A stretch of 50,284 nucleotides of DNA from an uncultured Candidatus Bathyarchaeia archaeon (GTDB taxonomy: Archaea > Thermoproteota > Bathyarchaeia > Bathyarchaeales > Bathyarchaeaceae): contig CAYFZQ010000003.1 in assembly GCA_964347825.1 (NCBI GenBank), forward strand, positions 1-50,284, in the 5' to 3' direction. A program made the translations under genes and the position numbers. Below, one piece after another: positions 17,181 through 33,020 of the stretch. Position 1 is the stretch's first letter, and each line of letters opens with the position of its first letter. The notes under the pieces were generated by a model, which had not been told where the DNA came from, searched no databases, and saw only the letters and a program-made list of their open reading frames with translations.

Positions 17181-18392
17181 TCAGAAGATTGAGATCTTCC
17201 CGCTTGCCAAGTCGCTGCAAAACGTCCCTATGTTTTCCAGTTCGTAATCGACGACCTCTTCTATTTCTCGCTGAACACTCTTGAAAGCGTTGCCCTGTTT
17301 CATGACAACTTGGGCAGCGGCAATAGCGGGCTGATCAATGGGTTTCCCTATCTGACTGAGCAACCAGATATATACTTCCGCTAATCCTGAGACTTTGTTG
17401 TAGATGTCATCTGCGATCTTATGTGTGAGAGAGTTGTAGATCTTGCCTACGTGGCTGACCGGATTCTTTCCAGCAGCAGCCTCAGAACAGAAGGGTCTGT
17501 TTAGGGGTATGACACCGTTGGTGCGGTTGCCTCGACCAACCTGACCCGAGTCGCCAGCCTCTGCACTAGTGCCCAGTACCGTGATGTAGACGCCTTCTAC
17601 GCCTTTGGCCTTCTCGTCAAGGGTGTTTAAGTCTACGTTGACCTTCTCGAAGTCTGTGTTTTCTTTCACGAATCTACGGATCTCTTCTTCCAGGGCGGCT
17701 TTCTTTCGGAAGTAATCCTTCTCGTTGTTCACATAGCGGTCAACCAGCGCCATCGCCAAAGTTAGGTTCAACTTGTTGTTCCTTCTGAATCCCATGACTT
17801 TGACGTCTTCGCCAGATTCTGGAAAGCGTTTCTTGAACTCGGGCGAGTTCACATGATTCTCAAGGCTCAAGACAATCTGCTCAGTTCGGGTCATCGGAGC
17901 GTAGCCAACTGCAGCGGAAGTGTCATTGGCACCTAGGACTCTCCCCCTTCTGTCGAATATGTCCATTAGTTCAGGATGCCCTGGCTTTAACTGAACCTGA
18001 TACTCCACATGCTTCTCCGGATCAACGAATCGCAGATTCTCCTTCACCCACTCTTTGGCCGTTTGAATAGCAATTTCCTCAACTGGTATGTGGACTCCAC
18101 CCACCTCGAATGTTGCCCTGTCACCGATAACGAGGAGCATCGGCTTCCGTATGGTACCGCCTCCGAAGCGGGTTTCCGCTTCGCCAGCAGCCAAGAGAGA
18201 TTTGTCAATGTTGTGATGCCTTATTCCACCAGTCTTGCTCTTGTACTCTTGGCTGAGTTGCACTGAGATTCGGTCCATTATGGCATCGCAGATGTAATCT
18301 GGGTGGCCCAAGCCCTTTCTCTCAACTATCTCCAATTGCTGTCCTTCAACAGGCGTTTGCTTTAGAACGTCAACAAGTATGTTCCTGACCAT
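17181..18392 (-). CDS. mat: Archaeal-type S-adenosylmethionine synthetase (methionine adenosyltransferase)
   Basis: MVRNILV...VERKGLGHPDYICDAIMDRIS...GDSGQVGRGNR is the archaeal MAT signature. ATG at 18392 gives 403 aa. The 109-aa N-terminal extension in the track ORF overlaps the divergent regulator and is discarded. Confidence 0.9.
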   Translation of the reverse strand: MVRNILVDVLKQTPVEGQQLEIVERKGLGHPDYICDAIMDRISVQLSQEYKSKTGGIRHHNIDKSLLAAGEAETRFGGGTIRKPMLLVIGDRATFEVGGVHIPVEEIAIQTAKEWVKENLRFVDPEKHVEYQVQLKPGHPELMDIFDRRGRVLGANDTSAAVGYAPMTRTEQIVLSLENHVNSPEFKKRFPESGEDVKVMGFRRNNKLNLTLAMALVDRYVNNEKDYFRKKAALEEEIRRFVKENTDFEKVNVDLNTLDEKAKGVEGVYITVLGTSAEAGDSGQVGRGNRTNGVIPLNRPFCSEAAAGKNPVSHVGKIYNSLTHKIADDIYNKVSGLAEVYIWLLSQIGKPIDQPAIAAAQVVMKQGNAFKSVQREIEEVVDYELENIGTFCSDLASGKISIF

Positions 18393-18422
18393 CTGAGATC
18401 GCCTTGGCGGACGTTTAGAAAC

Positions 18423-18479
18423 GATAACAGATATATATTTTGCGATATCAGTTATACATGGAAAATAACCTCGGGTTAT
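18423..18479. promoter_or_regulatory. Divergent promoter/operator region: two inverted repeats sharing ATAAC/GTTAT half-sites around an AT-rich TATA core
   Basis: The first is GATAACAGATAT-(10 nt ATATTTTGCG)-ATATCAGTTATA, with arms matching 10 of 12 (18423..18456). The second is a perfect ATAACC-TCG-GGTTAT (18465..18479). Both lie between mat (start 18392, minus strand) and the HTH-CBS gene (ATG 18502). Confidence 0.5.
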
Positions 18480-18501
18480 CATCGTGGTCGTCAACGGATC
18501 C

Positions 18502-19026
18502 ATGCTCAGGAGACTTAGGCAGGAAGTTGGACTAACACAGAGGCAACTCGCCAAGTTAGTAGGAGTTTCACAAGCCCACATCTCCAAGATCGAAGGGCAG
18601 AATGTAGATCCTCGACTATCCACGGTAAACAAGATTCTCATGGTCTTGACCGAAGGGAAAGGCAAGAAGTGCCATGAAGTCATGACGAAGAACGTCCTCT
18701 TCGTGACTCCACAGGACAAGGTTCTGAAAGTCAGTCAGGTTATGATGAGAAACGCGATATCTCAAATCCCAGTGATCGATGACGGGCGTGTTGTAGGCAC
18801 CGTGACAGAGGAGGGCATTGTCAGGAACTTGAGCTCCACGATAGCCGATGAGAAAGTTGCAGGAGTAATACAAGCGCCGCTGCCAAGCGTTCCTCATGAT
18901 ACTGACTTGAGTTTGATCAGGCCACTACTGGAGGAGCATCCAGGTGTGTTGATCGTAGAGAAGGACGAGATCGTCGGTATCATAACGAGGTCAGATCTCT
19001 TGAAGACCCTCTCCAGACCCATATAA
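18502..19026 (+). CDS. XRE-family helix-turn-helix transcription regulator fused to a CBS-domain pair
   Basis: MLRRLRQEVGLTQRQLAKLVGVSQAHISKIEGQNVDP is a Cro/C1-type HTH. It is followed by two CBS motifs (VMTKNVLFV...ISQIPVIDDGRVVGTVTE and ...HPGVLIVEKDEIVGIITRSDLL). ATG 18502 is preferred over GTG 18484. Confidence 0.8.
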   Translation: MLRRLRQEVGLTQRQLAKLVGVSQAHISKIEGQNVDPRLSTVNKILMVLTEGKGKKCHEVMTKNVLFVTPQDKVLKVSQVMMRNAISQIPVIDDGRVVGTVTEEGIVRNLSSTIADEKVAGVIQAPLPSVPHDTDLSLIRPLLEEHPGVLIVEKDEIVGIITRSDLLKTLSRPI

Positions 19027-19139: not shown

Positions 19140-20630
19140 ATGCTAGAACATTTAAAAGAAGCCTGCGGAGTCTTCGGAGCACAAGACCTTGGCGGCGGTC
19201 CGGTGTTCCCGTATATCTACTGGGGGTTAAGATCGCAAAATCATCGAGGGCACCAGTCGCACGGTTTTCTCACTTTCGATGGGACCTTCCATGTGCGCAA
19301 AGGCTTGGATCTGGTTCCGAAGCTGAAATCGAAAGATGTCGAAAAATGGTTGCGTGATTTGCCTGGCTACGTAGGTGTAGGAAACGTACGGTACACGACT
19401 TCCGGCGGGACAGATGAAAGATCGCTAGTTGAGGGAACTCAGCCATTCTTGACCAGCACAGACAAGAAGAGAATGGCGGTCTCATTCAACGGCAACATTG
19501 TGAATACCGCTCAGCTCACAAAGGAAATCAGACGCCAGTTCCCGGGATTCTGTTACGAATGCGACGGAGAATTGATCTGCCGAAAGCTCCTGTTGGGACT
19601 ATTGAAAAATCATGATTTACGCTCGTCTGTCAAGACCTGCATGAAAGAGGTAGAAGGCGCCTTTTCCGTTGCCGGAGTAACTCAAAAAGGAGAGTTATTC
19701 GCCTTCAGAGACCCCTACGGAGTAAGACCGCTTTGCTGCGGGAACGGCAACCATCGGCAAATCCGTGCGGTGTCCTCCGAAACCGTTGGTTTGGACATCA
19801 ACGGGTTTGAGCACAGCTTTGAGGTAAAACCTGGGGAGTTCGTGGCTGTGACTCAGGATGGTTTTGAACGGGAGCAACTTGTTGAATGTGAGAGAAAAGC
19901 TCTTTGTGCTTTCGAATTTGCCTACTTCGCTAGGCCAGACTCTAGGCTTGGAGATCAATTTGTGTATGAGGTGAGAGAGAACTTCGGACAAAACCTTGGT
20001 AGAGAATACCCTGAGATTGCCGCAAACGCGGATATCATTCTCTCGATGCCCGAAACGGGTGATGACTCTGCTTTAGGTCTTCACGAAGAGACGGGCGTCC
20101 GTTGGGAACGAGCCACAAGGAGACATAGATACGTAACGGAACGAGCCTTCATTCTCTTGCCAGAAGAACGCCATAGCACCATTGACAGAAAGATCAACAT
20201 TCTCGACCACAAGATCTCAGGGAAGACAGTTGTAGTTACTGAAGACAGTATCGTCAGGGGCGACACGACGAAAGTTGTGGTCAAGAAACTGCGTAGAATG
20301 GGTGCCAAGAAGGTCTATCTATTTATCACCTTCCCAAGGATTATCGGCCCCTGTTTCTATGGCGTTGACATGGCCACCTATGGTGAATTGATAGGTTCCA
20401 GATATGATGCTGAAGAAATCGCCAGGATCATTGATGCTGATGCCGTCTGCTATCAATCGGTAGCAGGATTCGTCGAAGCCACTGGTTTCGACAAGAACGA
20501 GTTGTGTCTGGGATGTGTTACTGGGGAATATCCGACTCCACTGGCGCAAAGGCTAGCTGACAAGATGAAGAAACACTTTGACAATGGACACAAAGAGATT
20601 GGGCGAATATACGAAATGGCAGTTGCTTAG
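19140..20630 (+). CDS. purF: Amidophosphoribosyltransferase
   Basis: A propeptide precedes the catalytic Cys (ACGVFGA). An Ntn glutaminase domain is followed by a PRTase domain (VVVTEDSIVRGDT). Confidence 0.95.
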   Translation: MLEHLKEACGVFGAQDLGGGPVFPYIYWGLRSQNHRGHQSHGFLTFDGTFHVRKGLDLVPKLKSKDVEKWLRDLPGYVGVGNVRYTTSGGTDERSLVEGTQPFLTSTDKKRMAVSFNGNIVNTAQLTKEIRRQFPGFCYECDGELICRKLLLGLLKNHDLRSSVKTCMKEVEGAFSVAGVTQKGELFAFRDPYGVRPLCCGNGNHRQIRAVSSETVGLDINGFEHSFEVKPGEFVAVTQDGFEREQLVECERKALCAFEFAYFARPDSRLGDQFVYEVRENFGQNLGREYPEIAANADIILSMPETGDDSALGLHEETGVRWERATRRHRYVTERAFILLPEERHSTIDRKINILDHKISGKTVVVTEDSIVRGDTTKVVVKKLRRMGAKKVYLFITFPRIIGPCFYGVDMATYGELIGSRYDAEEIARIIDADAVCYQSVAGFVEATGFDKNELCLGCVTGEYPTPLAQRLADKMKKHFDNGHKEIGRIYEMAVA

Positions 20631-20682: not shown

Positions 20683-22092
20683 ATGGACCGAGTTGGGATA
20701 CTAGTCGTGTCCTATGGTTCAAGAGGAGTAGCCGTGATAGACGCGTTCAGTCGCAGTGAAGACTATGATGCAGAATTCTACATTGCAGACAAACAGAGGA
20801 ATCCCTTTAACGCAAAAAAAGCGAGAAAACATGCTGTCATACCAGATCTTGATGTAAAGAAGATCTGCAGGTTTGCCAGAAAACATGAGAACAAGATCGA
20901 CTTCGGCATCGTGGGACCTGAAAAACCGATAATCAATGGCGTAAGAGACCTCTTTGAGGTAGAAACGCACATCCCCCTAATCTGCCCGACCAAAAAATTC
21001 GCAATAGAAGGAAGCAAAGTCGCGCAACGCTATCTCCTGGAACAAGTCGCTCCGGAAGCGAACCCAAGGTTCAGAGTGTTCGATCCCGCAGAGCATGGCA
21101 GCAAGAGTAAAGTGCGCAAAAAACTCGCTGCCTGGCTAGATGAACTCAACAACCGAGTCGCCGTCAAGCCGGACACCCCCGCCGCCGGAAAGGGAGTGGG
21201 TGTGTGGGGTGATCACTTCACAACGCGCAAGGGGTCGCTGGAGCACTTCCTGGCCAACTACGAACATGGTCCAGTACTAGTTGAGGAGAAGGTAGAAGGT
21301 GAAGAGTCAAGCTTTCAAGCTTTCTGTGACGGCAAACACATAGTTCCCCTGCCGGAGACTCGCGACTACAAGAGAGCATTCGACAACGACAAAGGACCAA
21401 ACACCGGAGGAATGGGATCATACAAAGACTCTGGCGACCTCTTGCCTTTCATGACGCCAGCAGATCGCCAGAAAGAGCTGAGAATCGTAGAAAAAGTCTT
21501 CAAGAAACTTAAGGGGAAGGGAAGCAATCCTGAGCTGCAAGGCATTCCGTTCTATTATGCATTCATCCACACCAGCAACGGACTAAAAATCCTCGAAAAC
21601 AACAGTCGCCCGGGCGATCCTGAGATACAGAACCTGCTGCCTGTGCTGAAGGACGACTTCGTCGAAGTTTGCTTCAAGATACTAGACGGCAACCTAAGAC
21701 GAGTCGAATTTGACAAACGCGCAACTGTTGTGATCTACAAGGCCCCCCCAGGATATGGAGGATTCATGAACGTCTTTCCTGAACAGGTAGAGAAGAATGA
21801 GGTGGGCAAACCTGTGGACTTAGGTGGCGCCTACAGACTAGAAGAAGAATATGGTGAGGCGATCAGAACCTATCCGGGATCAATGGAATTGAGAGAGGAC
21901 AAAACCTACGCCCTCACGTCACGAACTGTATGCGTCGTAGGCGTGGCAGACGATATTCCGAGAGCCAAAGAGATCTCGGTCGACGGGATAGAGGCGATTA
22001 AGGGGGGTTCGCTGTGGTTTAGAAGAGACATTGCCTCCGAAGAGCACGTCAAGAAGAGCATTGCACACATGCGAACCCTGAGGAAACGCTAA
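20683..22092 (+). CDS. purD: Phosphoribosylamine--glycine ligase
   Basis: ATP-grasp fold with GPNTGGMGSY and NSRPGDPE motifs. 469 aa, with insertions relative to the bacterial enzyme. Confidence 0.9.
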   Translation: MDRVGILVVSYGSRGVAVIDAFSRSEDYDAEFYIADKQRNPFNAKKARKHAVIPDLDVKKICRFARKHENKIDFGIVGPEKPIINGVRDLFEVETHIPLICPTKKFAIEGSKVAQRYLLEQVAPEANPRFRVFDPAEHGSKSKVRKKLAAWLDELNNRVAVKPDTPAAGKGVGVWGDHFTTRKGSLEHFLANYEHGPVLVEEKVEGEESSFQAFCDGKHIVPLPETRDYKRAFDNDKGPNTGGMGSYKDSGDLLPFMTPADRQKELRIVEKVFKKLKGKGSNPELQGIPFYYAFIHTSNGLKILENNSRPGDPEIQNLLPVLKDDFVEVCFKILDGNLRRVEFDKRATVVIYKAPPGYGGFMNVFPEQVEKNEVGKPVDLGGAYRLEEEYGEAIRTYPGSMELREDKTYALTSRTVCVVGVADDIPRAKEISVDGIEAIKGGSLWFRRDIASEEHVKKSIAHMRTLRKR

Positions 22093-23180
22093 TGGCTAGC
22101 GACCGACTATTCATCTCCGATTGTGAAGGTCCCGTATCAAAGAACGATAACGCATTTGAACTGACAAACAACTTCGTTCCACATGGAGATTACTTCTTTG
22201 CATTGGTAAGCAAATACGATGACATGCTTGCCGATGTCCTCAAGAAACCTGGCTATAAAGCTGGATACACCCTGAAGTTGATTCTACCCTTCTTGAAGAC
22301 CTACGGAGCGACCAACCGCAAGATGAAGGAGTACTCTGCAAAGAACATCCTACTCGTCCCAGGAGCCCAAGAGACGCTCGGATTCGTCAAAGACACAATG
22401 CCATCCTTTATGGTCAGCACCAGTTACGAACAGTACATTTCCTCCCTATGCACACTCGTAGGCTTTCCATACGAGAACACCTACTGCACGAAACTAGACT
22501 TAGACAAATACGAAGTCAGCGAGAGCGAGAAGAGGAAACTGAGAAAAATCCGAGAAGAAATCTCGCACATGCCCATGATCGAAATCCCGGAAAACGCCCA
22601 ATCCGTACAAGACTTCTCCACCAGAGATCAGAAGACAATCCAGCGACTAGACGAAATATTCTGGAATATCATCGCTGAGATGAAATCGGGCATCATGCTT
22701 CAGGAGGTTCAACCTGTCGGTGGTAGTGAAAAGGCTAAGGCGGTTCAGAATGCCGCCGAGAAGATGAATGGAAATCTTCAAGACGTGATGTACGTGGGTG
22801 ACAGCATAACGGATGCCACGTGTTTTCGGTTAGTGAGAGAAAATGAAGGGTTAACCGTTTCTTTCAACGGCAATGAATACGCTATCAAAGAAGCGGAGAT
22901 TGCTGTTCTCTCCGACAATACCATCGTCACTTCAGTTCTTGCCGACACCTTCAACACGGCAGGCAAAGACGGCGTGATCAACCTTGTCCGAGAGTGGGGA
23001 CATTCCGGACTGACGAAACACTGTGCCAACTCGACGCTGAGAAATCGCGCTTTCAAACTGTATCCTGAGAAGCTTCCTCAAGTCGAAATGACAACTCCGG
23101 CCAACAAAGAAAGGCTGATAAGAGAAAGTAATGCATTCAGAAAAAGAGTTAGAGGAGAAGCGATAGGAAGACTTGGATGA
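22092..23180 (+). CDS. Uncharacterised HAD-fold-like protein (recalls the archaeal family annotated 'energy-converting hydrogenase A subunit R')
   Basis: 362 aa. N-terminal LFISDCEGPVSKNDNAFEL has D-x-E in place of the HAD DxD. A C-terminal VGDSITD (motif IV-like) follows a large cap insertion. The ATG overlaps the purD TAA. The family assignment is from memory and unverified. Confidence 0.4.
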   Translation: MASDRLFISDCEGPVSKNDNAFELTNNFVPHGDYFFALVSKYDDMLADVLKKPGYKAGYTLKLILPFLKTYGATNRKMKEYSAKNILLVPGAQETLGFVKDTMPSFMVSTSYEQYISSLCTLVGFPYENTYCTKLDLDKYEVSESEKRKLRKIREEISHMPMIEIPENAQSVQDFSTRDQKTIQRLDEIFWNIIAEMKSGIMLQEVQPVGGSEKAKAVQNAAEKMNGNLQDVMYVGDSITDATCFRLVRENEGLTVSFNGNEYAIKEAEIAVLSDNTIVTSVLADTFNTAGKDGVINLVREWGHSGLTKHCANSTLRNRAFKLYPEKLPQVEMTTPANKERLIRESNAFRKRVRGEAIGRLG

Positions 23181-23230
23181 TTTAGTCAACCAGTTTCACA
23201 ATAGCTCGTTTCTGCTCAAGGAGAAATCAC

Positions 23231-24136
23231 ATGCAGCCCGAAATCGATGACACCTTCGCCGAAGCCTTCCAAGGCTTGTACTGCAGAATCATCGTGACTG
23301 CTGATGATGAAGTTGTCTTGCGGGAAGCAGCTCAAGATGCAACTGCGATGCCTTCAGTGGTCATCGGAAGGACGGAAGGGGGCGTTGAGAAGTATCTCAG
23401 TGAGGCGCAGACTTTAGACGGACGTAGGGGCGCAGTCTTGCAGTTTTGGGGCGCGATCGATGAAAAAAAACGTCTTGTCGATTCAGTGGAGAAGCTTGAA
23501 AAGGAGCTATCGTACCGCATACGCCAAGACATACTCGTCAAACCCTTCACCGCGATTTTTGATGCCCATCCCAAGCCCGAAGGTAGACTTGACATGATGA
23601 AAAGGGTCGGTCACTGTGGAGACGGATTTGAGTGGGAGGAGAAACGCTATGGGCGCAACATGATCATCGTGCCAATCATGGTTCCTGACTTCCAGATCGA
23701 ACGCTACTTGGGGTATGGTAGGGGGGTGATGGGGGCAAACTTCTGGTACATGTGCAGGACCAAAGAGTCAGTGACAACTGCCGGCAGAAAGGCGCTGCAA
23801 GCCATAGGCGAAATTGAAGGATCCATCACACCTTTCGGCATCTGCTCGGCAGGGTCCAAACCTGAGACCAAATTTCCGTGGATAGGTCCAACCACGAATC
23901 ACTTTTATTGCCCCACATTGAAAGAACGACTAGACAGAGAGTCACGGGTCCCTGCAGGCATCAGTTACATTCCAGAAATTGTGATCAACGGTTCTTCACT
24001 GGACGTTGTCAAGAAGGCAATGAAAGTCGGCATTCAGAGCGCGCTTCATGTAGCTGGCGTCGCTAGAATCTCCGCAGGCAATTATGGGGGAAAACTCGGA
24101 AAGTACAAAATCCACCTGCGAGAGTTGTTCAAATGA
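23231..24136 (+). CDS. ftr: Formylmethanofuran--tetrahydromethanopterin N-formyltransferase family protein (Ftr/FhcD-like)
   Basis: 301 aa, collinear with Ftr. N-terminal [30 protein letters not shown] and C-terminal [21 protein letters not shown] closely parallel Methanopyrus Ftr (EDTFAEAF ... ISAGNFGGKLGQYEIHLHDLF). The N-terminal lobe is more divergent. Confidence 0.8.
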
Positions 24137-25035
24137 AACTCGATGTCATCGGCTTCGGCGCCGTCAACTTAGATAGGCTATATAGAGTCGACTTCATTGC
24201 CAAAGAAGACGAGGAAAGCTCTATCCTAGATCTAACAGAGTCTCCGGGGGGTTCCGCAGCCAACACGATTGTTGGTCTGGCCAGGCTGGGGTTGAAGACT
24301 GGATTTGTCGGCAAAGTCGCTGAGGATCGCGCGGGAGAGCTTCTTCTGAAGGATTTCACAAACGAAAATGTGGATTTGAGCGGCATCGGGATTTCCAAAA
24401 CCGGTAGAAGCGGCACCGTCATGGGCTACGTGGACAAGAAAGGCGGCAGAGCACTCTACGTTGATCCAGGTGCCAATGATCTCCTAGAATTTGGCGAAAT
24501 CGATCTAGAATACGCCAACAACACTAAGTTCTTCCATCTAACATCCTTCGCCGGTGGAAAACCTTTCCAAGCTCAATGTAGACTCGTCAAGACTCTTTCT
24601 GACGTTGCGATAAGCCTTGATCCTGGCACTCTATATGCTAGAAAGGGCTTAGAGTCTTTGAAGCCCATTGTAAAACGTTGCTCAGTAATGTTTCCAAGTG
24701 GGCATGAAGTGAAGCTGCTCACTGGAAAAGACTATGAAAAGGGATCCAAGATTCTGACAAGAAAGGGTGTTGACATAGTCGCTGTGAAGCTTGGTGAGAG
24801 AGGGTGTTACGTCACAGATGGCCAAGAAAGCTATGTGGTAGAACCTTACAACGTAGAGGTCGCAGACACGACCGGGGCTGGTGATGCCTTTTGCGCCGGT
24901 TTCTTGTACGGTCTGATCGAAAACAAGGAGCTCTACGAGTGTGGAAAACTCGGGAACTTTGTGGCGTCCAGATGCATAACGAAGAGTGGCGCCAGAAGGG
25001 GACTTCCACGGCTTTCGGATTTGGGGAACATCTGA
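24133..25035 (+). CDS. PfkB-family carbohydrate/nucleoside kinase
   Basis: N-terminal GAVNLD...GGSAANT and the C-terminal anion-hole DTTGAGDAF motif. 300 aa. The ATG overlaps the ftr TGA (ATGA). Confidence 0.8.
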
Positions 25036-25040
25036 CGGCT

Positions 25041-25859
25041 CTAGAGCTTTCGAGTCAGATATTCGACCACAGATTCGAACACTAGCCTGCCATCGCCATA
25101 GTCCGGCATCCTTTGCTGAGTTGTCCAGTCAGGAAGTTGCCAGCCGTAGTAGGCTCTCTCCGGATGAGGCATCAGACCGAAGACGATGCCACTTGGATTG
25201 CAGATTCCAGCGATGTCGTGCAATGCCCCGTTGGGATTTGCAGGATATCTTCCCTCAGCGTATTCACCGTTCTCATCGCAGTATCTGAAGACAAGTTGGT
25301 CATTGTCATACAGCTTTTCCAAGTAGTCTCTTTCCTTTTCCTTTGAGAATACGAATCGCCCTTCTGCATGCGCCACAGGGATTCTCAGTGTTTCACCTTT
25401 GGGGATGTTCTTCGTGAAGACACAGTTGCCAGAGTTTTCGTTCTTAAGGTGAATCCAAGCGCAGCGATAGCCAACAGGAGTATTGGTTGCCAGCGCAGCT
25501 TTTGGATATTCGCCGGCATTCCTAAAGCCTGGTAAGAATCCTGCTTCAACCAAGACTTGGAAACCATTACAGATTCCCATGATAGGTCTTTCCATTTCCA
25601 CGAAGCGTTTCAAGTCAGGGCCCAGTTTGGCTATGAGGCTCTTAGCTAATATGGCGCCAGCTCGAACATAGTCTCCGTAAGAAAAGCCACCTGGAAATAC
25701 AAGAGCGCTATAGTCGAGAAGGTTTCCCTTTCTGACCAATTCGTTGAGGTGAACGACTTCAGCCTTGATACCTAGGTCATCGAACGCGCTCCTAGTTTCT
25801 GCGTCACAATTCGTTCCGCCGACCCTCGCTATGCAAACGTGGATTTCAGCCTTCTTCAC
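25041..25859 (-). CDS. purQ: Phosphoribosylformylglycinamidine synthase, glutaminase subunit
   Basis: GTNCD, a catalytic Cys in GICNGFQ and HAEG in VAHAEGRF. 272 aa. Confidence 0.9.
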   Translation of the reverse strand: MKKAEIHVCIARVGGTNCDAETRSAFDDLGIKAEVVHLNELVRKGNLLDYSALVFPGGFSYGDYVRAGAILAKSLIAKLGPDLKRFVEMERPIMGICNGFQVLVEAGFLPGFRNAGEYPKAALATNTPVGYRCAWIHLKNENSGNCVFTKNIPKGETLRIPVAHAEGRFVFSKEKERDYLEKLYDNDQLVFRYCDENGEYAEGRYPANPNGALHDIAGICNPSGIVFGLMPHPERAYYGWQLPDWTTQQRMPDYGDGRLVFESVVEYLTRKL

Positions 25860-25862
25860 TGT

Positions 25863-28235
25863 TCAACCTCCTAGCGCCCTTTCCCAACAGACCCGCAGTT
25901 CAGCCAAGCTGGTGTCTATGAGTCTCTTGCCATCTAGACCGTGCACAGAGAAATTGCGATTCTTTTCGACTCTCCCGACTGCTGAATAGATCGAGCCCCT
26001 CATCAGAGTCTCGAAATCCTCTCTGCGTTTCTCGATGACTTCTACGAGGAACCGGCTGCTAGACTCAGAGAAGAGAACGAAGTCATTCCGCCGAATCTCC
26101 TTACCCCCAGGCACGTTTTCCAGAAGCAGCTTCATTCCGTAGTCGCTGCTGAAGGCCATTTCCGCCGCCGCGACCGCCAAGCCCCCCTCTGAAAGATCAT
26201 GACACGACTTGATGTACCCAGCATCTATCGCCTTTCGCATCGCATCCATGATCTTTCTCCCTTGTCTTACTCTGACCCGAGGAACAGTTTTTCCCAAGAA
26301 CCCGCTCATTTGGTAGTATTCCGAACCGCCCAATTCCGGATAAGTCTGGCCTACTAGGTAGATCGGGTTTCCTGGGTGTTTCAATTCCATTGATACCGCC
26401 TTTCTCACGTCGTTGATTATTCCGATCGCTGTGATTAGAAGCGTAGGAGTGACTGGGCCGAGAGGTGACTCGTTATAAAGGCTGTCCTTTCCTGAAATGA
26501 ATGGAGTTCCGAAGCCTTTGGCAGTGTCGTAGCAGGCTTTGCAGGCCCTCATTAGTGAAGCTAGTCTGTCAGGTTTTTCAGGATTTCCCCATGTGAAATT
26601 GTCGAGTAGCGCGATTCTTCGTCCGCCTACCGAGGTGTTGTTTCGCAGGGCTTCGTCTATTGATGACGCAGCCATCCAGTAGGGATCGATCTTTCCATAA
26701 TTCGGGTTCATGCCACAAGATATGACGAGCCCTTTCCAAGACTTTCGCAGCGGTTTGACTATTGCGGCATCATTTGGCCCACTGTATTTGCCTTGCAGAG
26801 GTTTCAGCGCAGTATTTCCTTTGACTTCATGGTCATACGTTCTCACCACTGATTCGCGACTGGCAACATTTGGGGAAGCTAGCATCTTTAATAAGACGTT
26901 CGGGAGGCTTTCTGGCTCAGCAAATTCAGGTTCAGCATACGGTGGCGCCTTCCGTCTTCCAGTCCTCTTGACTTTGGGCGGTTCAAACAAGAAATGCGTT
27001 GCTAGATACGCGACTCTCCTTCCTTGATAGTCAGCTCTAACAAACTGATCGTCTGTGAACCTGCCAATTGGAGTAGCCTGGACGTTTTCGCTCTCAAAGA
27101 TTTTCAAGGCGTCTCGAAGGTTCCTTTTGGGAACACTTATGAACATTCGTTCCTGGGATTCAGAAATGTAGATCTCCCATGGAGCCATACCTGGGTACTT
27201 CAGTGGGATTTTCTCTAGCTCGATATGCACGCCGCAGTGGGATCGGTGGGCCATCTCACCGGCAGCACTGGAAAGCCCTCCGCCGCCCAGGTCAGTTATG
27301 GCGGAGCCTAATTCTTCATCTCTTATTTGGATGATCGCACGTCGTAGTTTCTCCTCCTCGATAGGATTGGCTATCTGAACAGCTGGCCTAGATACTTCTT
27401 CAGATTCTTCTGTCAGTTCAGCCGAGGCGAAGGTCACTCCGTGAATTCCGTCCCTTCCAGTTTTTCCTCCTGCTAGAACTGCGATGTCACCGGGCATCGT
27501 GTTTCTCACAAACTTCTTCATCGGGAGGATGCCCATGCACCCACAGTAAACGACGACGTTGCCCACGTAGCTCTCGTCAAAGTAGAGTGCTCCGTTGACC
27601 GTGGGAATGCCCATGTTGTTCCCGTAGCAGCCTATGCCCGCGACAACTCCTCTGAAGACGTATTTGGGATGCTTTATTCCGAGAGGGAGCTTCTCGTATT
27701 CGAAATCCAGTGGCCCAAAACAGAGGACGTCTGTGCACGCTATTGGATCAGCCCACACTCCAAGGACGTCGCGGATTACTCCCCCTGTTCCAGTTGCTGC
27801 ACCCCCAAAAGGCTCAATGGCTGAGGGATGATTGTGCGTTTCGACTTTGGCTGCAACGGCATAGCCATTTTCGAACTCGATAATACCTGCATTGTCTTCG
27901 AATACGGAGAGGCACCAAGGCAGATTGAGTTCACGCGTTACGCCTGCTATGTATGTCTTGAACGGGCTCTCCACTTCCCCGTCTTCCGTGGTAATATTTC
28001 CTTTGAAGGTCTTGTGGAAACAATGTTCGGACCACGTCTGCCCAATTGCTTGGAGTTCGACGTCTGTGGGAGTTCTTCCATTCTTCCGAAAATATCTTTG
28101 AACGGTCTTCATCTCTCTTAGATTCAAGCCGATTCCTAGTTCTCTGCTTGCCTGCAGGAGCTGTCTGTCATCTGCATTAAGAAGGTCAACTGTAAATAGC
28201 TCGAACGGCAGATCTTGTTTGATGAACAGGCTCAT
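25863..28235 (-). CDS. purL: Phosphoribosylformylglycinamidine synthase subunit II
   Basis: 790 aa with a duplicated PurM-like fold and the ETHNHPS, GGAATGTGGVIRD and QERM motifs. Confidence 0.95.
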   Translation of the reverse strand: MSLFIKQDLPFELFTVDLLNADDRQLLQASRELGIGLNLREMKTVQRYFRKNGRTPTDVELQAIGQTWSEHCFHKTFKGNITTEDGEVESPFKTYIAGVTRELNLPWCLSVFEDNAGIIEFENGYAVAAKVETHNHPSAIEPFGGAATGTGGVIRDVLGVWADPIACTDVLCFGPLDFEYEKLPLGIKHPKYVFRGVVAGIGCYGNNMGIPTVNGALYFDESYVGNVVVYCGCMGILPMKKFVRNTMPGDIAVLAGGKTGRDGIHGVTFASAELTEESEEVSRPAVQIANPIEEEKLRRAIIQIRDEELGSAITDLGGGGLSSAAGEMAHRSHCGVHIELEKIPLKYPGMAPWEIYISESQERMFISVPKRNLRDALKIFESENVQATPIGRFTDDQFVRADYQGRRVAYLATHFLFEPPKVKRTGRRKAPPYAEPEFAEPESLPNVLLKMLASPNVASRESVVRTYDHEVKGNTALKPLQGKYSGPNDAAIVKPLRKSWKGLVISCGMNPNYGKIDPYWMAASSIDEALRNNTSVGGRRIALLDNFTWGNPEKPDRLASLMRACKACYDTAKGFGTPFISGKDSLYNESPLGPVTPTLLITAIGIINDVRKAVSMELKHPGNPIYLVGQTYPELGGSEYYQMSGFLGKTVPRVRVRQGRKIMDAMRKAIDAGYIKSCHDLSEGGLAVAAAEMAFSSDYGMKLLLENVPGGKEIRRNDFVLFSESSSRFLVEVIEKRREDFETLMRGSIYSAVGRVEKNRNFSVHGLDGKRLIDTSLAELRVCWERALGG

Positions 28236-28483
28236 TCTATTTCCTCTAACTCGAAGCTATAGTCATCTTTCGTTGGGTTTGCCAGCAGCCGTCTACACAT
28301 CTCCTCTGCTACGCCTCTAGCTTCTCTCTGTGAAGACGCTTCGAAGATTATGGAGTAGATTTTCCCGACGCCAACGCTTTTGACTGGGTAGTTCAGCTCC
28401 TTGAGAGAACGCCAAGTCATTTCGCCTTCAGGATCAGAATGCCCGGGTTTCAGTTTAACCTCGATCTTCGCGTGGAACCTCAT
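28232..28483 (-). CDS. purS: Phosphoribosylformylglycinamidine synthase subunit PurS
   Basis: 83 aa reading KLKPGHSDPEGEMTWRSLKELNY...ANPTKDDYSFELEE. It overlaps the purL start. Confidence 0.85.
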   Translation of the reverse strand: MRFHAKIEVKLKPGHSDPEGEMTWRSLKELNYPVKSVGVGKIYSIIFEASSQREARGVAEEMCRRLLANPTKDDYSFELEEIE

Positions 28484-28497
28484 GGGTTATAGTCAAA

Positions 28498-28513
28498 CAA
28501 ATAAAAATTTAAG
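28498..28513 (-). promoter_or_regulatory. TATA-like element (minus strand CTTAAATTTTTATTT) for purS-purL-purQ
   Basis: Centred about 23 nt upstream of the purS ATG, in the 208-bp gap that splits the minus-strand purine arm. Confidence 0.35.
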
Positions 28514-28691
28514 TGTTTTTGGACCGATTTTGACACTTTTCATTAACCTCGACAGGGTGAGGCTTCATTGTTACCAGTTAGGTTGTTCATGGAAATCTCT
28601 GTGTCGTGAGGCCCATACGCGATTTTCAAGCCGAAAAACGAATGCTGCAGTTGCCGAGACTAGCCGGACCTGGCAAGGCAACTCATGCTGA

Positions 28692-29087
28692 TCATCCACT
28701 GGCCCAAGTCAAGACCATAACAACGACGAGTGCGATTCCAATTATTGTCGACGATGATTCATGGTTTGACCGGAGTGCAAACGGATGGTCTTGGGTGAAC
28801 TCGGCAACAATCAAGCAGATCCCAGTACCAGCGAAAAACAGGAACGCGCTATGAACCCTCAGTAGCATTTTCAGTATAATCAACGACAGCATACCCCAAT
28901 GATAATGCTCAAAAACCTCCAGTCGCTTCTCATACTTATTACCCCCGAGTCGCCACCACAAAAAATCGAGGATCAAACCTGCTAAGAGACCTATGCAAAG
29001 CCCAATCAGAAGGGAGCCCAGTTCAAGATTGCTTCCGAAGGCTTCAACCATGCAAATGAGATTGGGCCAGCGGGTATAAGAATTCAT
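28692..29087 (-). CDS. Small integral membrane protein (about 4 TM helices), unknown function
   Basis: 131 aa with four hydrophobic segments (LGSLLIGLCIGLLAGLILDFLWW, WGMLSLIILKMLL, FLFFAGTGICLIVAEF, IIGIALVVVMVLTW). Its ATG overlaps the purM TGA (ATGA at 29084..29087). Confidence 0.6.
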   Translation of the reverse strand: MNSYTRWPNLICMVEAFGSNLELGSLLIGLCIGLLAGLILDFLWWRLGGNKYEKRLEVFEHYHWGMLSLIILKMLLRVHSAFLFFAGTGICLIVAEFTQDHPFALRSNHESSSTIIGIALVVVMVLTWASG

Positions 29088-30172
29088 TTCAGCGCTATCT
29101 TTTTGCCTTTGTACAAGGCCACGATGTGTCCAGAGTCAGTTACTCGTCCAATGCGTTCAGCGTCAACCGCCGTTTTCTTGAAACTCTCAACGACGCCATT
29201 TTCCTCGGTCTTCTCCACGATGACTGCAAAACCCCAGCCCAAGTTGAAAGTCTTCAACATCTCCTCATCTGTAATGTCACCTCTAACCTCTGAAGACGTC
29301 TTCTGAATCAGGTTGAAAATGGGTTGCGGTGCGAAGTTGTCGAACTCGAATCCGATTCCTTTGGAGAACTCCATCAGCTTATCGAACTTCAGGTAGCCGT
29401 CACCAGTAATGTGGACCACGCCCTTGAATCGATAATCCTCGGCCACGGTCAGCAGCGGCCTAGCATAGATTCTCGTTGGTTCGAGAACCTCAGTGACGAG
29501 GTCTCTGTCAAAGCCATCGGGGATATCATTCGGATTGTATTTTCCGCCCCATCGTTTGAACAGGACTTTTCTTGCCAAGGATAGACCGTTGCTGTGAATG
29601 CCGGAACTTCTCAAGCCAATTACGACGTCTCCGGGTTTTATGTTGTTTCCATATACTATTTCGTCTTCTGTCAATTCGCCTATGCAGGCGACCACCATGT
29701 CGAAGCCCTTGTCTTCTGTTATTCCTTTGATGATCTCGGCTACGTCTCCTATTTCTCCGCTTGGGACTGGACAGCCGGCTTCAGTGGCTCCTTTCGCGAT
29801 GCCTTTCATCCACGCCTCGACCAAGAGAGGACTGGAGACCTGGGCATGTATGTTGTCAACGACGGCTAGTGGGGTAGCCCCAGATCGTATCACGTCGTTT
29901 ACGGCCATGGCAACTCCGTCTACGCCGATGGTGTCGTACTTGTCCGCGAGTTGGGCCACGAGAACCTTGGTTCCGACGCCTTCGATCACTAGGTCGAGAT
30001 ATCGGTCGCCTATTGGAAAGATGTTGCCGTACGGAAGGTGGACTACCTTGCCGTATTTGCTGAGCCTGTAGGTTTGCTTGAGAGCTGATAACGCTGCTTT
30101 GGATTTCGCCCTTAGTTCTCGGTCAACACCAGCTCTGGCATAGGAGAACTCTTCGGGCACCCACTTCACCAT
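29084..30172 (-). CDS. purM: Phosphoribosylformylglycinamidine cyclo-ligase (AIR synthetase)
   Basis: PurM fold with DGVGTK-like EGVGTKV, and SGIHSNGLSL. 362 aa. Confidence 0.9.
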   Translation of the reverse strand: MVKWVPEEFSYARAGVDRELRAKSKAALSALKQTYRLSKYGKVVHLPYGNIFPIGDRYLDLVIEGVGTKVLVAQLADKYDTIGVDGVAMAVNDVIRSGATPLAVVDNIHAQVSSPLLVEAWMKGIAKGATEAGCPVPSGEIGDVAEIIKGITEDKGFDMVVACIGELTEDEIVYGNNIKPGDVVIGLRSSGIHSNGLSLARKVLFKRWGGKYNPNDIPDGFDRDLVTEVLEPTRIYARPLLTVAEDYRFKGVVHITGDGYLKFDKLMEFSKGIGFEFDNFAPQPIFNLIQKTSSEVRGDITDEEMLKTFNLGWGFAVIVEKTEENGVVESFKKTAVDAERIGRVTDSGHIVALYKGKKIALK

Positions 30173-30177
30173 GGTTT

Positions 30178-31611
30178 CTATGTAACGATGTCACCGAGTC
30201 GTTTCTCTCTAGACGCTCTCTTCATCTCGAGAGCTATTCTGTCCCCCATGCTCATGATCTTTCTATATTTGGCATTCGCATACTGGGAACCGATTCCCAT
30301 GTGGACATTGGTTCCGCCACCATGTCTCAGAGCCACGTCTTGGGTAACGGGAATGTGCATGTAGGCTTCTTTTCCCTCTGGCACATCGTACAGACCATAG
30401 TCAACAGCAGTCTTTGCTTCGGCGCCTCCGGTGAAGTCCACTTTGATTTTTGGTTTTAGTTCATATTTTGATATTCTGTCCCACGTGACTAGCGTCTGCA
30501 GGCACCAAGCGCCCACAATGCCAGGGGGTTCATGTTCTCGCGTGGCGAGCAGGAACCGGTCAGCATATCGGTGCATGTCTTTGAGCAACGATTCTCTCAG
30601 GCTCATGAGAACATGAGCTGTGACTTCAAATGATGGGACCCGTCTGATCTTCTCTTGAATGTCTATCGGCAGTCTCTTCACGCCGTCGAGGATCGTCTCC
30701 CTTCGTTCATCGATAGACAGGAACTGGTTTGCCAAGCAGACTCGTGTCTGTTCCCGGCTGACGCGGTACAATTTGGAGTACCAGTCTTCGGCATCTCCCC
30801 ACGCACTATTGGCATCCAAGGGGGAGAAGAAGAAGTTGAAGTTTGCGTGTGGACCCAGAACGATTTGCTCAGCCCGTGCTCTTTCCAGACTTTCTTTGGT
30901 GAGGGTTCCTGCTTCCATTTCTTTCTCCACCTTTTCTTCTAGGTCTTGGGAGTTGGCTGCGAAGATGAATTCTCTTTCGAATTCTCTGTGGGCGTGTTCG
31001 GCCTTCACCAGAAGTGGTTCATCGATCGGTTCTTTGAATTGTATGCCTTTGTCAGAGACTGTGTACTCGTAGGATTTGGGATAAGGGATGCCAGCTTGAT
31101 CAGCGAACCAGTAGTAGTCCTTCTCAATCTCTCCGCGGTTCTCGATCTTCAGGAGTTTTCTCGAGCCAACGATGGGAACGGCGAATTTCTTTTCGATGAC
31201 GCTGCAAGTCTCGTCTCCGCCGACGTAAACGGAGAAGGCTCTGTTAGTGATTTGCAGGCACTCCAGGTTGATCAGATCGTCTACGTACTTCACAATGTCG
31301 GAGTATTTGTCGAGGATCAGCAGGACGCTTTTCCATTCATCTTTCTTTTTGATGTCGCTTGGATCACCTACAACTTTCAGATCTCTTCTAACGAGTTTCG
31401 GTAGGTCCTCTACGGTTTCGTCTGCCCTGCCAACCATGGGGTTTTGCAGGTAAATTCTCGCCCGTTGTGGGGTGACGTAGATGATGCTTCGCAAACCATA
31501 GTCTCGTTGGCCCTGCCAAGCGTCGAGTGCTGAATGGGAGCCTAAGTTGAGGCCAATTGGTTCCTGATATCTCTTGGCGATTTCCTGCATTTCGCTTCTT
31601 TCTATAACCAT
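30178..31611 (-). CDS. purP: 5-formaminoimidazole-4-carboxamide ribotide (FAICAR) synthetase, formate/ATP-dependent, enlarged form
   Basis: N-terminal LGSHSALD... and a C-terminal ATP-grasp region ending RHGGGTNVHMG are PurP-like. ATG 31611 (MVIERSEMQEI) is chosen because the track start (31764) overlaps purC out of frame. Confidence 0.75.
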   Translation of the reverse strand: MVIERSEMQEIAKRYQEPIGLNLGSHSALDAWQGQRDYGLRSIIYVTPQRARIYLQNPMVGRADETVEDLPKLVRRDLKVVGDPSDIKKKDEWKSVLLILDKYSDIVKYVDDLINLECLQITNRAFSVYVGGDETCSVIEKKFAVPIVGSRKLLKIENRGEIEKDYYWFADQAGIPYPKSYEYTVSDKGIQFKEPIDEPLLVKAEHAHREFEREFIFAANSQDLEEKVEKEMEAGTLTKESLERARAEQIVLGPHANFNFFFSPLDANSAWGDAEDWYSKLYRVSREQTRVCLANQFLSIDERRETILDGVKRLPIDIQEKIRRVPSFEVTAHVLMSLRESLLKDMHRYADRFLLATREHEPPGIVGAWCLQTLVTWDRISKYELKPKIKVDFTGGAEAKTAVDYGLYDVPEGKEAYMHIPVTQDVALRHGGGTNVHMGIGSQYANAKYRKIMSMGDRIALEMKRASREKRLGDIVT

Positions 31612-31658
31612 TGATATTTCTCCATTCAAATGGAGCTTCTTAGAGGTCTGACCTTCTA

Positions 31659-32501
31659 CTAAAATTTTCTGCCCGTTAATCTTTCGTATGCTTCGACGTA
31701 TTTTCTTGAGGTTTCTCTGATTATGGGATCGGGTAAGTTGGGGGCAGGAGGTGCTTTGTTCCATTTCAGGGAGTTCAGATAATCTCTAACGTATTGTTTG
31801 TCAAAGCTGTCTTGGTTCTTTCCTACGTCATATTTTTCTGCTGGCCAAAACCGTGACGAGTCGGGGGTGAAGAGTTCATCAATGAGCATGAGTTCCCCGT
31901 TTAATAGACCGAATTCGAACTTTGTGTCGGCGACAATGATGCCGTTGGCTTCAGCCTTCTTGGAGACGCGCTCATAGAGCTTCAAGCATGTTTGATCGAT
32001 TTTTTGCGCCGCTTTCTTTCCGATTTTTTCGGAAACCTCGCTTTTGGTCATCTCGATATCGTGACCGGACTCAGCTTTGGTGGTGGGTGTTAGAAGTGGT
32101 TCCCGCAGTCTCTCTGCCTTTTCTAGTCCGCTTGGCAGCTTGATTCCGCAGACGGGCTTGCCATGGCTATATTTTTCCCAAGCAGAGCCATATAGGTAGC
32201 CTCGGACAACGAACTCGATCTTTATCGAGTCGGCTTTTCTGACTAGAACGGTTCTTTGGTCAAGGACGTCCAAGATATGATTGGGAATGATGTCTTTGGT
32301 TTGGTTGAACCAGTAGACTGAGAGTCTGCTAAGTGCTTCTCCCTTGTGAGGAATACCATCAGGTAGGACGACGTCAAAGGCGGAGATTCGGTCCGTGGAG
32401 ACTATCAATAGTCGGTCTTTCAAATCATAGACGTCTCTCACCTTTCCTTTCTTGAACATGGGAAAGGGTAGTCCAGTTTCGAGCAGAACATCAGAACTCA
32501 T
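31659..32501 (-). CDS. purC: Phosphoribosylaminoimidazole-succinocarboxamide synthase
   Basis: GKVRDVYD, STDRISAFD and ADTKFEFG motifs. 280 aa. Confidence 0.95.
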   Translation of the reverse strand: MSSDVLLETGLPFPMFKKGKVRDVYDLKDRLLIVSTDRISAFDVVLPDGIPHKGEALSRLSVYWFNQTKDIIPNHILDVLDQRTVLVRKADSIKIEFVVRGYLYGSAWEKYSHGKPVCGIKLPSGLEKAERLREPLLTPTTKAESGHDIEMTKSEVSEKIGKKAAQKIDQTCLKLYERVSKKAEANGIIVADTKFEFGLLNGELMLIDELFTPDSSRFWPAEKYDVGKNQDSFDKQYVRDYLNSLKWNKAPPAPNLPDPIIRETSRKYVEAYERLTGRKF

Positions 32502-32507
32502 TTTGCC

Positions 32508-33020
32508 TTACCTTTTGTCCTTCGGCCTTATAGATTTCTCTAACTCTTCGGCATCTGCGTAAACATTTCTTTTCATTCTCTCTCTAAGGCGGGCAATTTT
32601 ATCATGCAGAGAATGGTCTGAGAGCGCAAGCATCCTTACCGCTGCTAAAGCGGCGTTCTCAGGCATAGGAATGTAGGCGACTGCGATGCCTTTCGGCATG
32701 ACAGCGGATGAAAACGTCTTGGCCCATTCGTATTTCTCCGAATCTGGAGGACAAGCTATGACCGGATACTTTGTGTAGCCCGCAACTACCCCTGAAAGCG
32801 CATCCGACAAGCCCGCCACCGTTATGAAGATTGTGTTCTCCTCCGTCGCCTCGTATTCCTGCAAGTTGTCTAGCAGTTTTCTGGGAGTTCTATGTGCCGA
32901 GACAATCTTGTATTCGCAGGGAACTGGAAAACCTGCTTCTTCAAGGAAGGCGCCGATTCGTGAAGCGAAGGCGTAATCGCTCTTGGAGCCCATTAGAACA
33001 ACGATTTTCTCTTTAGGCAT
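32508..33020 (-). CDS. purE: PurE (AIR carboxylase / N5-CAIR mutase family)
   Basis: VVLMGSKSD...VSAHRTP...AGLSDALSGVVA. 170 aa. No purK lies nearby. Confidence 0.9.
   Translation of the reverse strand: MPKEKIVVLMGSKSDYAFASRIGAFLEEAGFPVPCEYKIVSAHRTPRKLLDNLQEYEATEENTIFITVAGLSDALSGVVAGYTKYPVIACPPDSEKYEWAKTFSSAVMPKGIAVAYIPMPENAALAAVRMLALSDHSLHDKIARLRERMKRNVYADAEELEKSIRPKDKR

Follow-up and report, generated by a model that had tools for sequence, protein, structure and literature searches.

A folate-independent route for the third step of purine biosynthesis, the formylation of glycinamide ribonucleotide (GAR), may be encoded in a stretch of 50,284 nucleotides (nt) from a Candidatus Bathyarchaeia contig (CAYFZQ010000003.1, assembly GCA_964347825.1, positions 1-50,284), hereafter called the window. 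Directly downstream of purF and purD, this window carries the genes of an EhaR-family protein of the haloacid dehalogenase (HAD) fold, of a homologue of formylmethanofuran:tetrahydromethanopterin formyltransferase (Ftr) and of a PfkB-family kinase. We interpret these three genes as one conserved purine-biosynthesis module, and neither as hydrogenase subunits nor as a stray one-carbon (C1) gene. As judged from sequence and gene context, the trio is the best available candidate for a purine enzyme apparently missing from many archaea. We propose with moderate confidence that the Ftr homologue acts as a GAR formyltransferase that needs no folate, in concert with EhaR and PfkB, a reading which is favoured because PurN-like and PurT-like genes occupy the slot beside EhaR in other lineages. 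An earlier sequence-only reading of the window had considered either a shuttle delivering formate or formyl groups to purine steps 3 and 9, or a non-orthologous GAR formyltransferase. The comparative evidence favours, without proving it, the second of these proposals, and neither the formate shuttle nor the role in step 9 is retained: all the linkage observed is to purD, and thus to GAR.

The same reading had described purF, purD and the trio as one tight string, and the five plus-strand open reading frames (ORFs) and their junctions are indeed organised in this way (Table 1). The purD stop codon and the EhaR start codon share one A ('cgcTAATGgct', as read from the sequence), a 50-nt spacer containing GGAG lies upstream of the Ftr ATG, and an ATGA overlap joins Ftr to PfkB. 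PfkB is predicted to be translationally coupled to Ftr, and the EhaR-family protein likewise to PurD. The stop codon of the convergent purQ gene is found 5 nt from that of PfkB. The closest homologues of the window proteins studied all come from Bathyarchaeota.

Conservation of this arrangement was analysed by scanning a genome collection with an EhaR alignment. The best 80 loci were kept, all from different metagenome-assembled genomes of Bathyarchaeia, with EhaR identities of 52-72%. The purD gene lies directly upstream of ehaR in all loci with enough sequence (68/68), and purF is conserved upstream of purD in 52 loci. Ftr is found within 2.2 kb downstream of ehaR in 66 of 72 loci, and PfkB downstream in 59 of 69. 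The median gap is -4 nt both for purD-ehaR, where the two genes overlap or abut in 66 of 73 loci, and for ftr-pfkB (55/62), the start codon chosen being in each case the nearest to the upstream stop. The purQ-purL-purS-purM block is usually convergent, and the module arrangement recurs in about 60 of the 80 independent genomes. The purD-HADlike-ftr-pfkB order, whose recurrence in relatives had been suggested as a check, is thus conserved in Bathyarchaeia, and the chance insertion of a C1 gene was rejected on these statistics. Some local variants were also observed. In one locus (L005, 3229-4047), the place of Ftr-PfkB right after purD-ehaR is taken by a PNP_UDP_1 nucleoside phosphorylase. In a complete Bathyarchaeia chromosome (L056, 11100-11666), ehaR is followed by a truncated Ftr of 188 amino acids (aa), corresponding to the N-terminal lobe alone, and purD is apparently split, which may reflect gene decay or an assembly error.

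In other lineages, EhaR is associated with other formyl-donor enzymes. A bacterial protein of 599 aa (P0307, locus L084, with ruvAB adjacent) is a PurN-like::EhaR fusion, with an N-terminal PF00551 domain and intact EhaR motifs. This N-terminal domain matches PurN best among families (E 3e-15) and the E. coli GAR transformylase best among structures (E 7.5e-11). PurT-like::EhaR fusions are also found (P0317 and P0346, of 899 and 961 aa; L105 and L109), and PurT is the best family and structure match, ahead of PurK, for the N-terminal ATP-grasp region of P0317 and P0346. Separate genes are observed as well: a 571-aa PurT-like gene is positioned 10 nt upstream of the EhaR gene in L087, and a 275-aa PurN-like gene abuts or overlaps a degenerate EhaR-like gene in Methanomassiliicoccales. 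When metagenomes were scanned with the 'DWEGPW' subgroup of EhaR, 80 further loci were obtained, ranging in GC content from 0.32 to 0.65. The context types found are PurT-like followed by EhaR (T1, 9 loci); EhaR followed by an Ftr homologue and then purD and purF (T2, 8 low-GC loci, plus 5 without Ftr); purF-purD-EhaR with a convergent PfkB (T3, 7 loci); EhaR-PfkB (T4, 5 loci); and PurN-like followed by EhaR and PfkB (T5, 13 loci, with PfkB also in 11 and one preceded by purM). In ten representative loci, the genes lying beyond the module are housekeeping genes with no relation to it.

The slot beside EhaR is thus occupied by Ftr, PurN-like or PurT-like proteins, three unrelated formyl-donor enzymes. 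Two of these occupants belong to the two known GAR transformylase families, and such swapping has the classical signature of non-orthologous displacement. The PurT-like proteins (about 570 aa, versus 392 aa in E. coli) keep 11 of 13 PurT active-site positions (E82, K155, S160, G162, E195, E203, E267, E279, D286, K355 and R362), including the GAR-site residues E82, D286, K355 and R362, and the Asn106-His108-Asp144 triad is preserved in the PurN-like proteins. In BLAST, the E. coli sequences used as reference in this comparison behaved as expected. Judging from these residues, both types of partners look catalytically competent. An archaeal gene-fusion survey makes no mention of PurN-like::EhaR or PurT-like::EhaR fusions. 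One or two small conserved ORFs (about 104 and 150 aa, with no family match) precede the PurT-like(::EhaR) genes (L089, 416-1172; L105, 7391-8154; L109, 7415-8171; L087, 221-730).

The occupant of this slot in the window is a member of the Ftr family aligned over its full length, with both lobes recognised (PF01913, 146.8 bits; PF02741, 186.1 bits). It is 36-40% identical to the structures of the housekeeping enzyme Ftr1 and 33% identical to its bacterial homologue FhcD, whereas Ftr1 enzymes are 60-68% identical among themselves and 41-47% identical to bacterial FhcD. A tree of EhaR-adjacent Ftr proteins (Bathyarchaeia, the low-GC lineage and L151), three characterised Ftr1 and FhcD was computed by neighbour joining, on 291 columns with 100 bootstraps and few outgroup sequences. 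The EhaR-linked proteins form one clade (bootstrap 97), separate from the Ftr1 clade of M. kandleri, A. fulgidus and M. barkeri (bootstrap 98). The phylogeny called for by the sequence-only reading thus does not nest them with canonical Ftr1. Twelve positions discriminate the EhaR-linked clade from Ftr1, including a lost 'PG' at residues 201-202. Glu245 (M. kandleri numbering), which we take from the Ftr structures to be the catalytic residue, is invariant in 26 of 26 aligned Ftr sequences. The window protein is judged from these comparisons not to be an orthologue of the characterised housekeeping Ftr1.

The second protein of the trio gave weak C-terminal HAD matches alone in a profile hidden Markov model search. 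Its assignment comes from dozens of homologues, 63-75% identical, named 'energy-converting hydrogenase A subunit R' by the Joint Genome Institute (JGI), as are more distant relatives; the EhaR family suggested in the sequence-only reading was thus correct. Its sole solved relative is AF1437 from A. fulgidus (PDB 1Y8A; E 6e-34, about 26% identical), deposited as a structural-genomics hypothetical protein, and no literature was found on AF1437, 1Y8A, MTH402/403 or EhaR. The AlphaFold2 (AF2) model has a predicted local distance difference test score (pLDDT) of 95.8 and template modelling (TM) scores of 0.80/0.91 to 1Y8A, the next best matches being HAD enzymes of the phosphoserine phosphatase (SerB) type. 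The FISDCEGP and VGDSITD motifs are both present. In motif I, the nucleophile D10 is conserved and the +2 position is Glu (DCEGP), not Asp, the DxEGP pattern being kept family-wide. Motifs II-IV (S109-T110-S111, K214 and G236-D237-S-I-T-D241) are intact in a Rossmannoid fold. Among 150 representatives (50% clustering), the family-wide features are DxEGP, STSY, a Lys, GDSITD, SFNGN and the tail RKxVRGxxIGxLG. This tail, which forms the near-invariant extreme C-terminus (RKxVRGxxIGxLG-COOH; window positions 23130-23180), might be a docking element. In the EhaR-like subgroup of Methanomassiliicoccales, this tail has been lost, together with the nucleophile Asp and motif IV.

The PfkB protein is well recognised by its family model (PF00294, 171.3 bits versus a cutoff of 25.8) and contains the DTxGAGD catalytic motif. 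Its best NCBIfam matches are ribokinase (TIGR02152, 144.8 versus a cutoff of 299.65) and ribose-1-phosphate kinase (136.9 versus 330), so that its scores, below every equivalog cutoff, classify it as a generic sugar or nucleoside kinase. The nearest PDB entries are uncharacterised sugar kinases, with no close characterised structure. PfkB adjoins EhaR in Bathyarchaeia and in context types T3, T4 and T5, and the option of a plain salvage kinase, left open by the sequence-only reading, is weakened since it is found together with EhaR in four or more types of lineage. It accompanies EhaR with Ftr or PurN-like donors (Bathyarchaeia and L154-L177), and never with the ATP-using PurT-like proteins (L098-L109). 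Its distribution may indicate that the module needs one ATP-dependent component.

The absence of purN and purT from the window, as noted earlier, could be confirmed. Neither was detected by Pfam in the likely-gene ORFs of at least 110 aa, plus one 93-aa ORF, in a scan that left out ORFs nested opposite called genes, and tblastn of the window with four PurN/PurT-type probes gave only noise (E of at least 0.1). PurN-like and PurT-like genes are also lacking within +/-10 kb in 81 Bathyarchaeia loci. The missing enzyme is a recognised problem in archaea. Both PurN and PurT are missing in Archaeoglobi/Archaeoglobales, Methanobacteriales and M. kandleri (Brown et al., PMC3261824), as well as in ANME-1 (an anaerobic methanotrophic lineage; Chadwick et al. 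2022, PMC9012536). In both studies, the formylation of GAR in these groups is attributed to an enzyme still to be identified, in 2022 with the words 'an as yet unidentified enzyme'. According to Chadwick et al. (2022, PMC9012536), a divergent Ftr2 coexists with Ftr1, the only one of the two to be characterised, in ANME-1, ANME-2a/b, Archaeoglobales, M. kandleri and Methanothermobacter. A. fulgidus also carries the EhaR homologue AF1437. In the groups reported, the distribution of Ftr2 thus appears to track the PurN/PurT-less lineages. This link is made in neither PMC9012536 nor PMC3261824, and no work making it was found; nor was any literature found on GAR together with methanofuran (MFR).

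A connection with the hydrogenase literature is provided by Methanothermobacter, where ehaR, ehaS and ehaT are co-transcribed with ehaA-Q (PMC3087415). EhaS and EhaT, encoded at the end of this operon, had first been taken for Ftr and ribokinase, and the 'second Ftr' of this organism is the Eha subunit EhaS (Kaster et al., PMC3087415). This annotation history and the common families suggest that the window trio corresponds to EhaR-EhaS-EhaT.

These comparisons show the gene anatomy and its conservation, the exchange of donor genes in one slot, the position of the Ftr clade and the preserved catalytic residues. From them we infer which molecule accepts the formyl group (GAR), which one donates it, a physical association of the proteins and the roles of EhaR and PfkB, as follows. 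PurD would make GAR, and the Ftr homologue would move a formyl group onto it, giving formylglycinamide ribonucleotide (FGAR) for PurLQS. Both FGAR and formyl-MFR arise by N-formylation of a primary aminomethyl group, and the Ftr reaction is readily reversible. This common aminomethyl chemistry suggests that GAR could replace MFR in the Ftr reaction. The formyl group could come directly from formyl-MFR, or from N5-formyl-tetrahydromethanopterin (formyl-H4MPT) with the aminomethyl group of GAR replacing that of methanofuran, and the ATP-driven PurLQS step would pull formylation forward. EhaR would be the dedicated partner of the donor enzyme of each lineage (Ftr2, PurN-like or PurT-like), and probably binds or handles the phosphoribosyl substrate, or serves as a scaffold for PurD and the donor. 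In Methanomassiliicoccales, a binding role would fit with the loss of the catalytic Asp. PfkB would be the third, ATP-using member.

Several observations weigh against a GAR formyltransferase function. The window Ftr passes the NCBIfam model NF002554 (338.9 bits versus a cutoff of 297), and, if it is the sole copy in Wood-Ljungdahl genomes, it must also perform the housekeeping reaction; the search for PurN/PurT covered the window and +/-10 kb of the loci. Its putative Ftr2/EhaS type is deduced from its common EhaR and PfkB neighbours and its exclusion from Ftr1. ANME-2a/2b possess both PurN and Ftr2 (PMC9012536). EhaR homologues also stand alone in uninformative contexts, in A. fulgidus (AF1437), ANME-2, Deltaproteobacteria and another bacterium (P0424), and EhaR is thus not strictly tied to missing PurN/PurT. 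The need for EhaR is left unexplained where its PurN-like and PurT-like partners retain their own GAR-site residues, and fusions within a pathway are not proof of consecutive steps. Six Bathyarchaeia loci keep purD-ehaR with other genes downstream and no Ftr nearby, which makes purD-ehaR the tightest link, and in L001 fae, a C1 gene, follows Ftr.

Some of these points lead to the main alternative, which we consider rather unlikely. The window Ftr would be a housekeeping enzyme of Wood-Ljungdahl/C1 metabolism, lying near the pur genes through the common C1 pool, EhaR and PfkB would be a kinase/phosphatase pair, and GAR formylation would be encoded elsewhere. The pair could convert ribose-1-phosphate to ribose-1,5-bisphosphate, and then to ribose-5-phosphate or to phosphoribosyl pyrophosphate (PRPP) for PurF, in an HldE/GmhB-like manner; in a variant, it would be a nucleoside kinase/nucleotidase salvage pair. 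A housekeeping Ftr agrees with the NCBIfam score, with the conserved catalytic Glu and C-terminal motif, and with the position of fae in L001. As for the pair, the best matches of PfkB to ribokinase and ribose-1-phosphate kinase, the phosphatase-type HAD site kept by EhaR, its fold closest to phosphoserine phosphatases, the nucleoside phosphorylase found after ehaR in L005 and the EhaR-PfkB pairs without a donor gene in T3 and T4 all point in the same direction. However, this alternative gives no reason for EhaR to be fused or adjacent specifically to PurN-like and PurT-like proteins in preference to PurF or Prs, for the Ftr clade to stand apart from Ftr1, or for Ftr2 to track the PurN/PurT-less lineages. 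The loss of the catalytic Asp in the Methanomassiliicoccales EhaR-like proteins also argues against an essential phosphatase role there.

A more ambitious possibility, which seems doubtful to us, is that EhaR is an obligatory, hitherto overlooked subunit common to the Ftr2, PurN-like and PurT-like enzymes, in a GAR formylation complex using phosphoryl chemistry, with ATP entering through PfkB or through the ATP-grasp partner. Such an entry of ATP would explain why PfkB is found beside Ftr or PurN-like partners and not beside PurT-like ones. If this were true, many archaea and some bacteria would use a new mechanism for step 3, and EhaR/S/T would have to be reassigned from the hydrogenase to purine enzymes coupling the methanogenic C1 pool to nucleotide synthesis.

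The delivery of formate, as envisaged in the sequence-only reading, now appears very improbable. An FhcD-like Ftr would act with a HAD-fold hydrolase on formyl-MFR or formyl-H4MPT, and the formate set free would supply the formate-dependent PurP, as well as a PurT that is not seen here. A PurP-like gene is indeed present in the facing cluster, FhcD is an Ftr homologue (as illustrated by the match to PDB 6S6Y), and PurP/PurT-type enzymes need free formate (PMC3261824). However, the window Ftr fails the FhcD model (TIGR03119, 233.4 bits versus a cutoff of 292.6), to which its low identity to FhcD adds, no FwdA/B/C-like (fhcA/B/C) genes were seen among the window ORFs scanned, no PurT was seen either, and the linkage is to purD, not to purP. 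PurN-like partners found elsewhere do not use formate. To our knowledge, HAD-fold enzymes are not amidases. Release of formate by an FhcD-type system was thus rejected on score and context. The weakest candidate, by which the trio would be hydrophilic accessory subunits of the energy-converting [NiFe] hydrogenase Eha, as the JGI name and the Methanothermobacter co-transcription (PMC3087415) suggest, is highly implausible and was rejected, since no hydrogenase domains or genes were found in the window or among the annotated neighbours of the related loci examined, and since the trio lies within pur operons of several lineages and occurs in organisms without Eha (A. fulgidus, bacteria).

Table 1. 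Features of the window discussed in the text (positions in nt from the start of the window).
Feature	Position	Strand	Basis or remark
metK ORF	17181-18719	-	
HTH_3 + two CBS domains protein	18484-19026	+	Pfam; between metK and purF
purF, amidophosphoribosyltransferase, step 1	19140-20630	+	TIGR01134 311 bits; Pfam GATase_6/7
purD, GAR synthetase, step 2	20683-22092	+	GARS_N/A/C domains; TIGR00877 254 bits
EhaR-family HAD-fold protein, 362 aa	22092-23180	+	homologue naming, 1Y8A match, motifs, AF2 model
Ftr-family formyltransferase, 301 aa, EhaR-linked clade (Ftr2/EhaS-like), candidate GAR formyltransferase	23231-24136	+	PF01913 + PF02741
PfkB-family kinase, EhaT-like, 300 aa	24133-25035	+	PF00294
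Convergent purine cluster	25041-33020	-	ORFs; recurs as conserved block in Bathyarchaeia loci
purQ	25041-25859	-	sequence-only reading
purL	25863-28235	-	sequence-only reading
purS	28232-28483	-	sequence-only reading
Hydrophobic ORF between purS and purM, 131 aa	28692-29087	-	without Pfam match
purM	29084-30172	-	sequence-only reading
PurP-like	30178-31764	-	Pfam DUF1297 + DUF1246; NCBIfam run
purC	31659-32501	-	sequence-only reading
purE	32508-33020	-	sequence-only reading
Glutamine synthetase	33094-34422	-	beside purE

The facing strand carries the purine genes listed in the sequence-only reading, with a divergent PurP-like protein (about 138 bits versus NCBIfam equivalog cutoffs of about 556). 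This divergence and low score mean that its role in step 9 is not secure. The PurP-like ORF as listed shares about 100 nt with purC, and its true start is probably later. The PurP-like protein is 77-81% conserved in four Bathyarchaeia loci (L002, L003, L044 and L048), and two ordinary-looking PurP paralogues are found in the same slot in L035. The glutamine synthetase gene found beside purE in the window directly follows pfkB in L010 and L011. On the other side of the module, the HTH_3/CBS protein is encoded at the same position in the Bathyarchaeia loci L002, L003, L012, L035 and L056, and may be a nucleotide- or SAM (S-adenosylmethionine)-sensing regulator of the pur operon and a putative member of the module. 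In the metK ORF as listed, about 110 aa precede the AdoMet synthetase domain, an N-terminal extension which probably results from a mechanical choice of the start codon.

The GAR formyltransferase gap in archaea has been acknowledged since at least 2011 (Brown et al.). The locus studied here and its relatives name candidates for this gap, namely the Ftr2/EhaS clade, EhaR and EhaT, with the hypothesised reaction GAR + formyl-MFR or N5-formyl-H4MPT giving FGAR. If true, this would represent a third, cofactor-distinct class of GAR formyltransferase, and would provide a first functional context for a widespread uncharacterised HAD family, the structure of which was solved in 2005. Metabolic models of Bathyarchaeia and methanogens would also be corrected. 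Eha is an anaplerotic hydrogenase, which replenishes the C1 units withdrawn for biosynthesis. The presence of a 'second Ftr' and of a 'ribokinase' in its operon would be explained by the proposed function.

Comparison with known systems underlines what is shared and what is specific. The window trio resembles EhaR-EhaS-EhaT of Methanothermobacter, in which a HAD-like protein, an Ftr paralogue and a ribokinase-like PfkB are also encoded side by side. However, it is attached to purF-purD rather than to hydrogenase genes, and the putative orthology follows from naming and neighbourhood. AF1437 (1Y8A) and the phosphoserine phosphatase-type HADs have in common with the window EhaR a HAD Rossmannoid core, a helical cap and motifs II-IV, whereas the window protein differs by the DxE instead of DxD in motif I, an extra C-terminal helical region and the RGxxIGxLG tail. 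The window Ftr belongs to the same two-lobe fold family as Ftr1 (PDB 1FTR, 1M5H and 1M5S), with the same Glu245 and C-terminal AGNYGGKLG motif, but Ftr1 is closer in identity to bacterial FhcD than to the window protein, which is found in the context of purD, EhaR and PfkB and not of C1 genes. FhcD (PDB 6S6Y) is another example of an Ftr homologue employed outside methanogenesis; in contrast to it, the window Ftr, 33% identical and below the TIGR03119 cutoff, has no FhcA/B/C partners among the window ORFs scanned. Finally, PurN and PurT would share with the window Ftr a pathway position, the slot beside EhaR that they occupy elsewhere and the proposed product FGAR, whereas the window Ftr has an unrelated fold and a proposed formyl-MFR or formyl-H4MPT donor, in a window where no member of these two families was detected.

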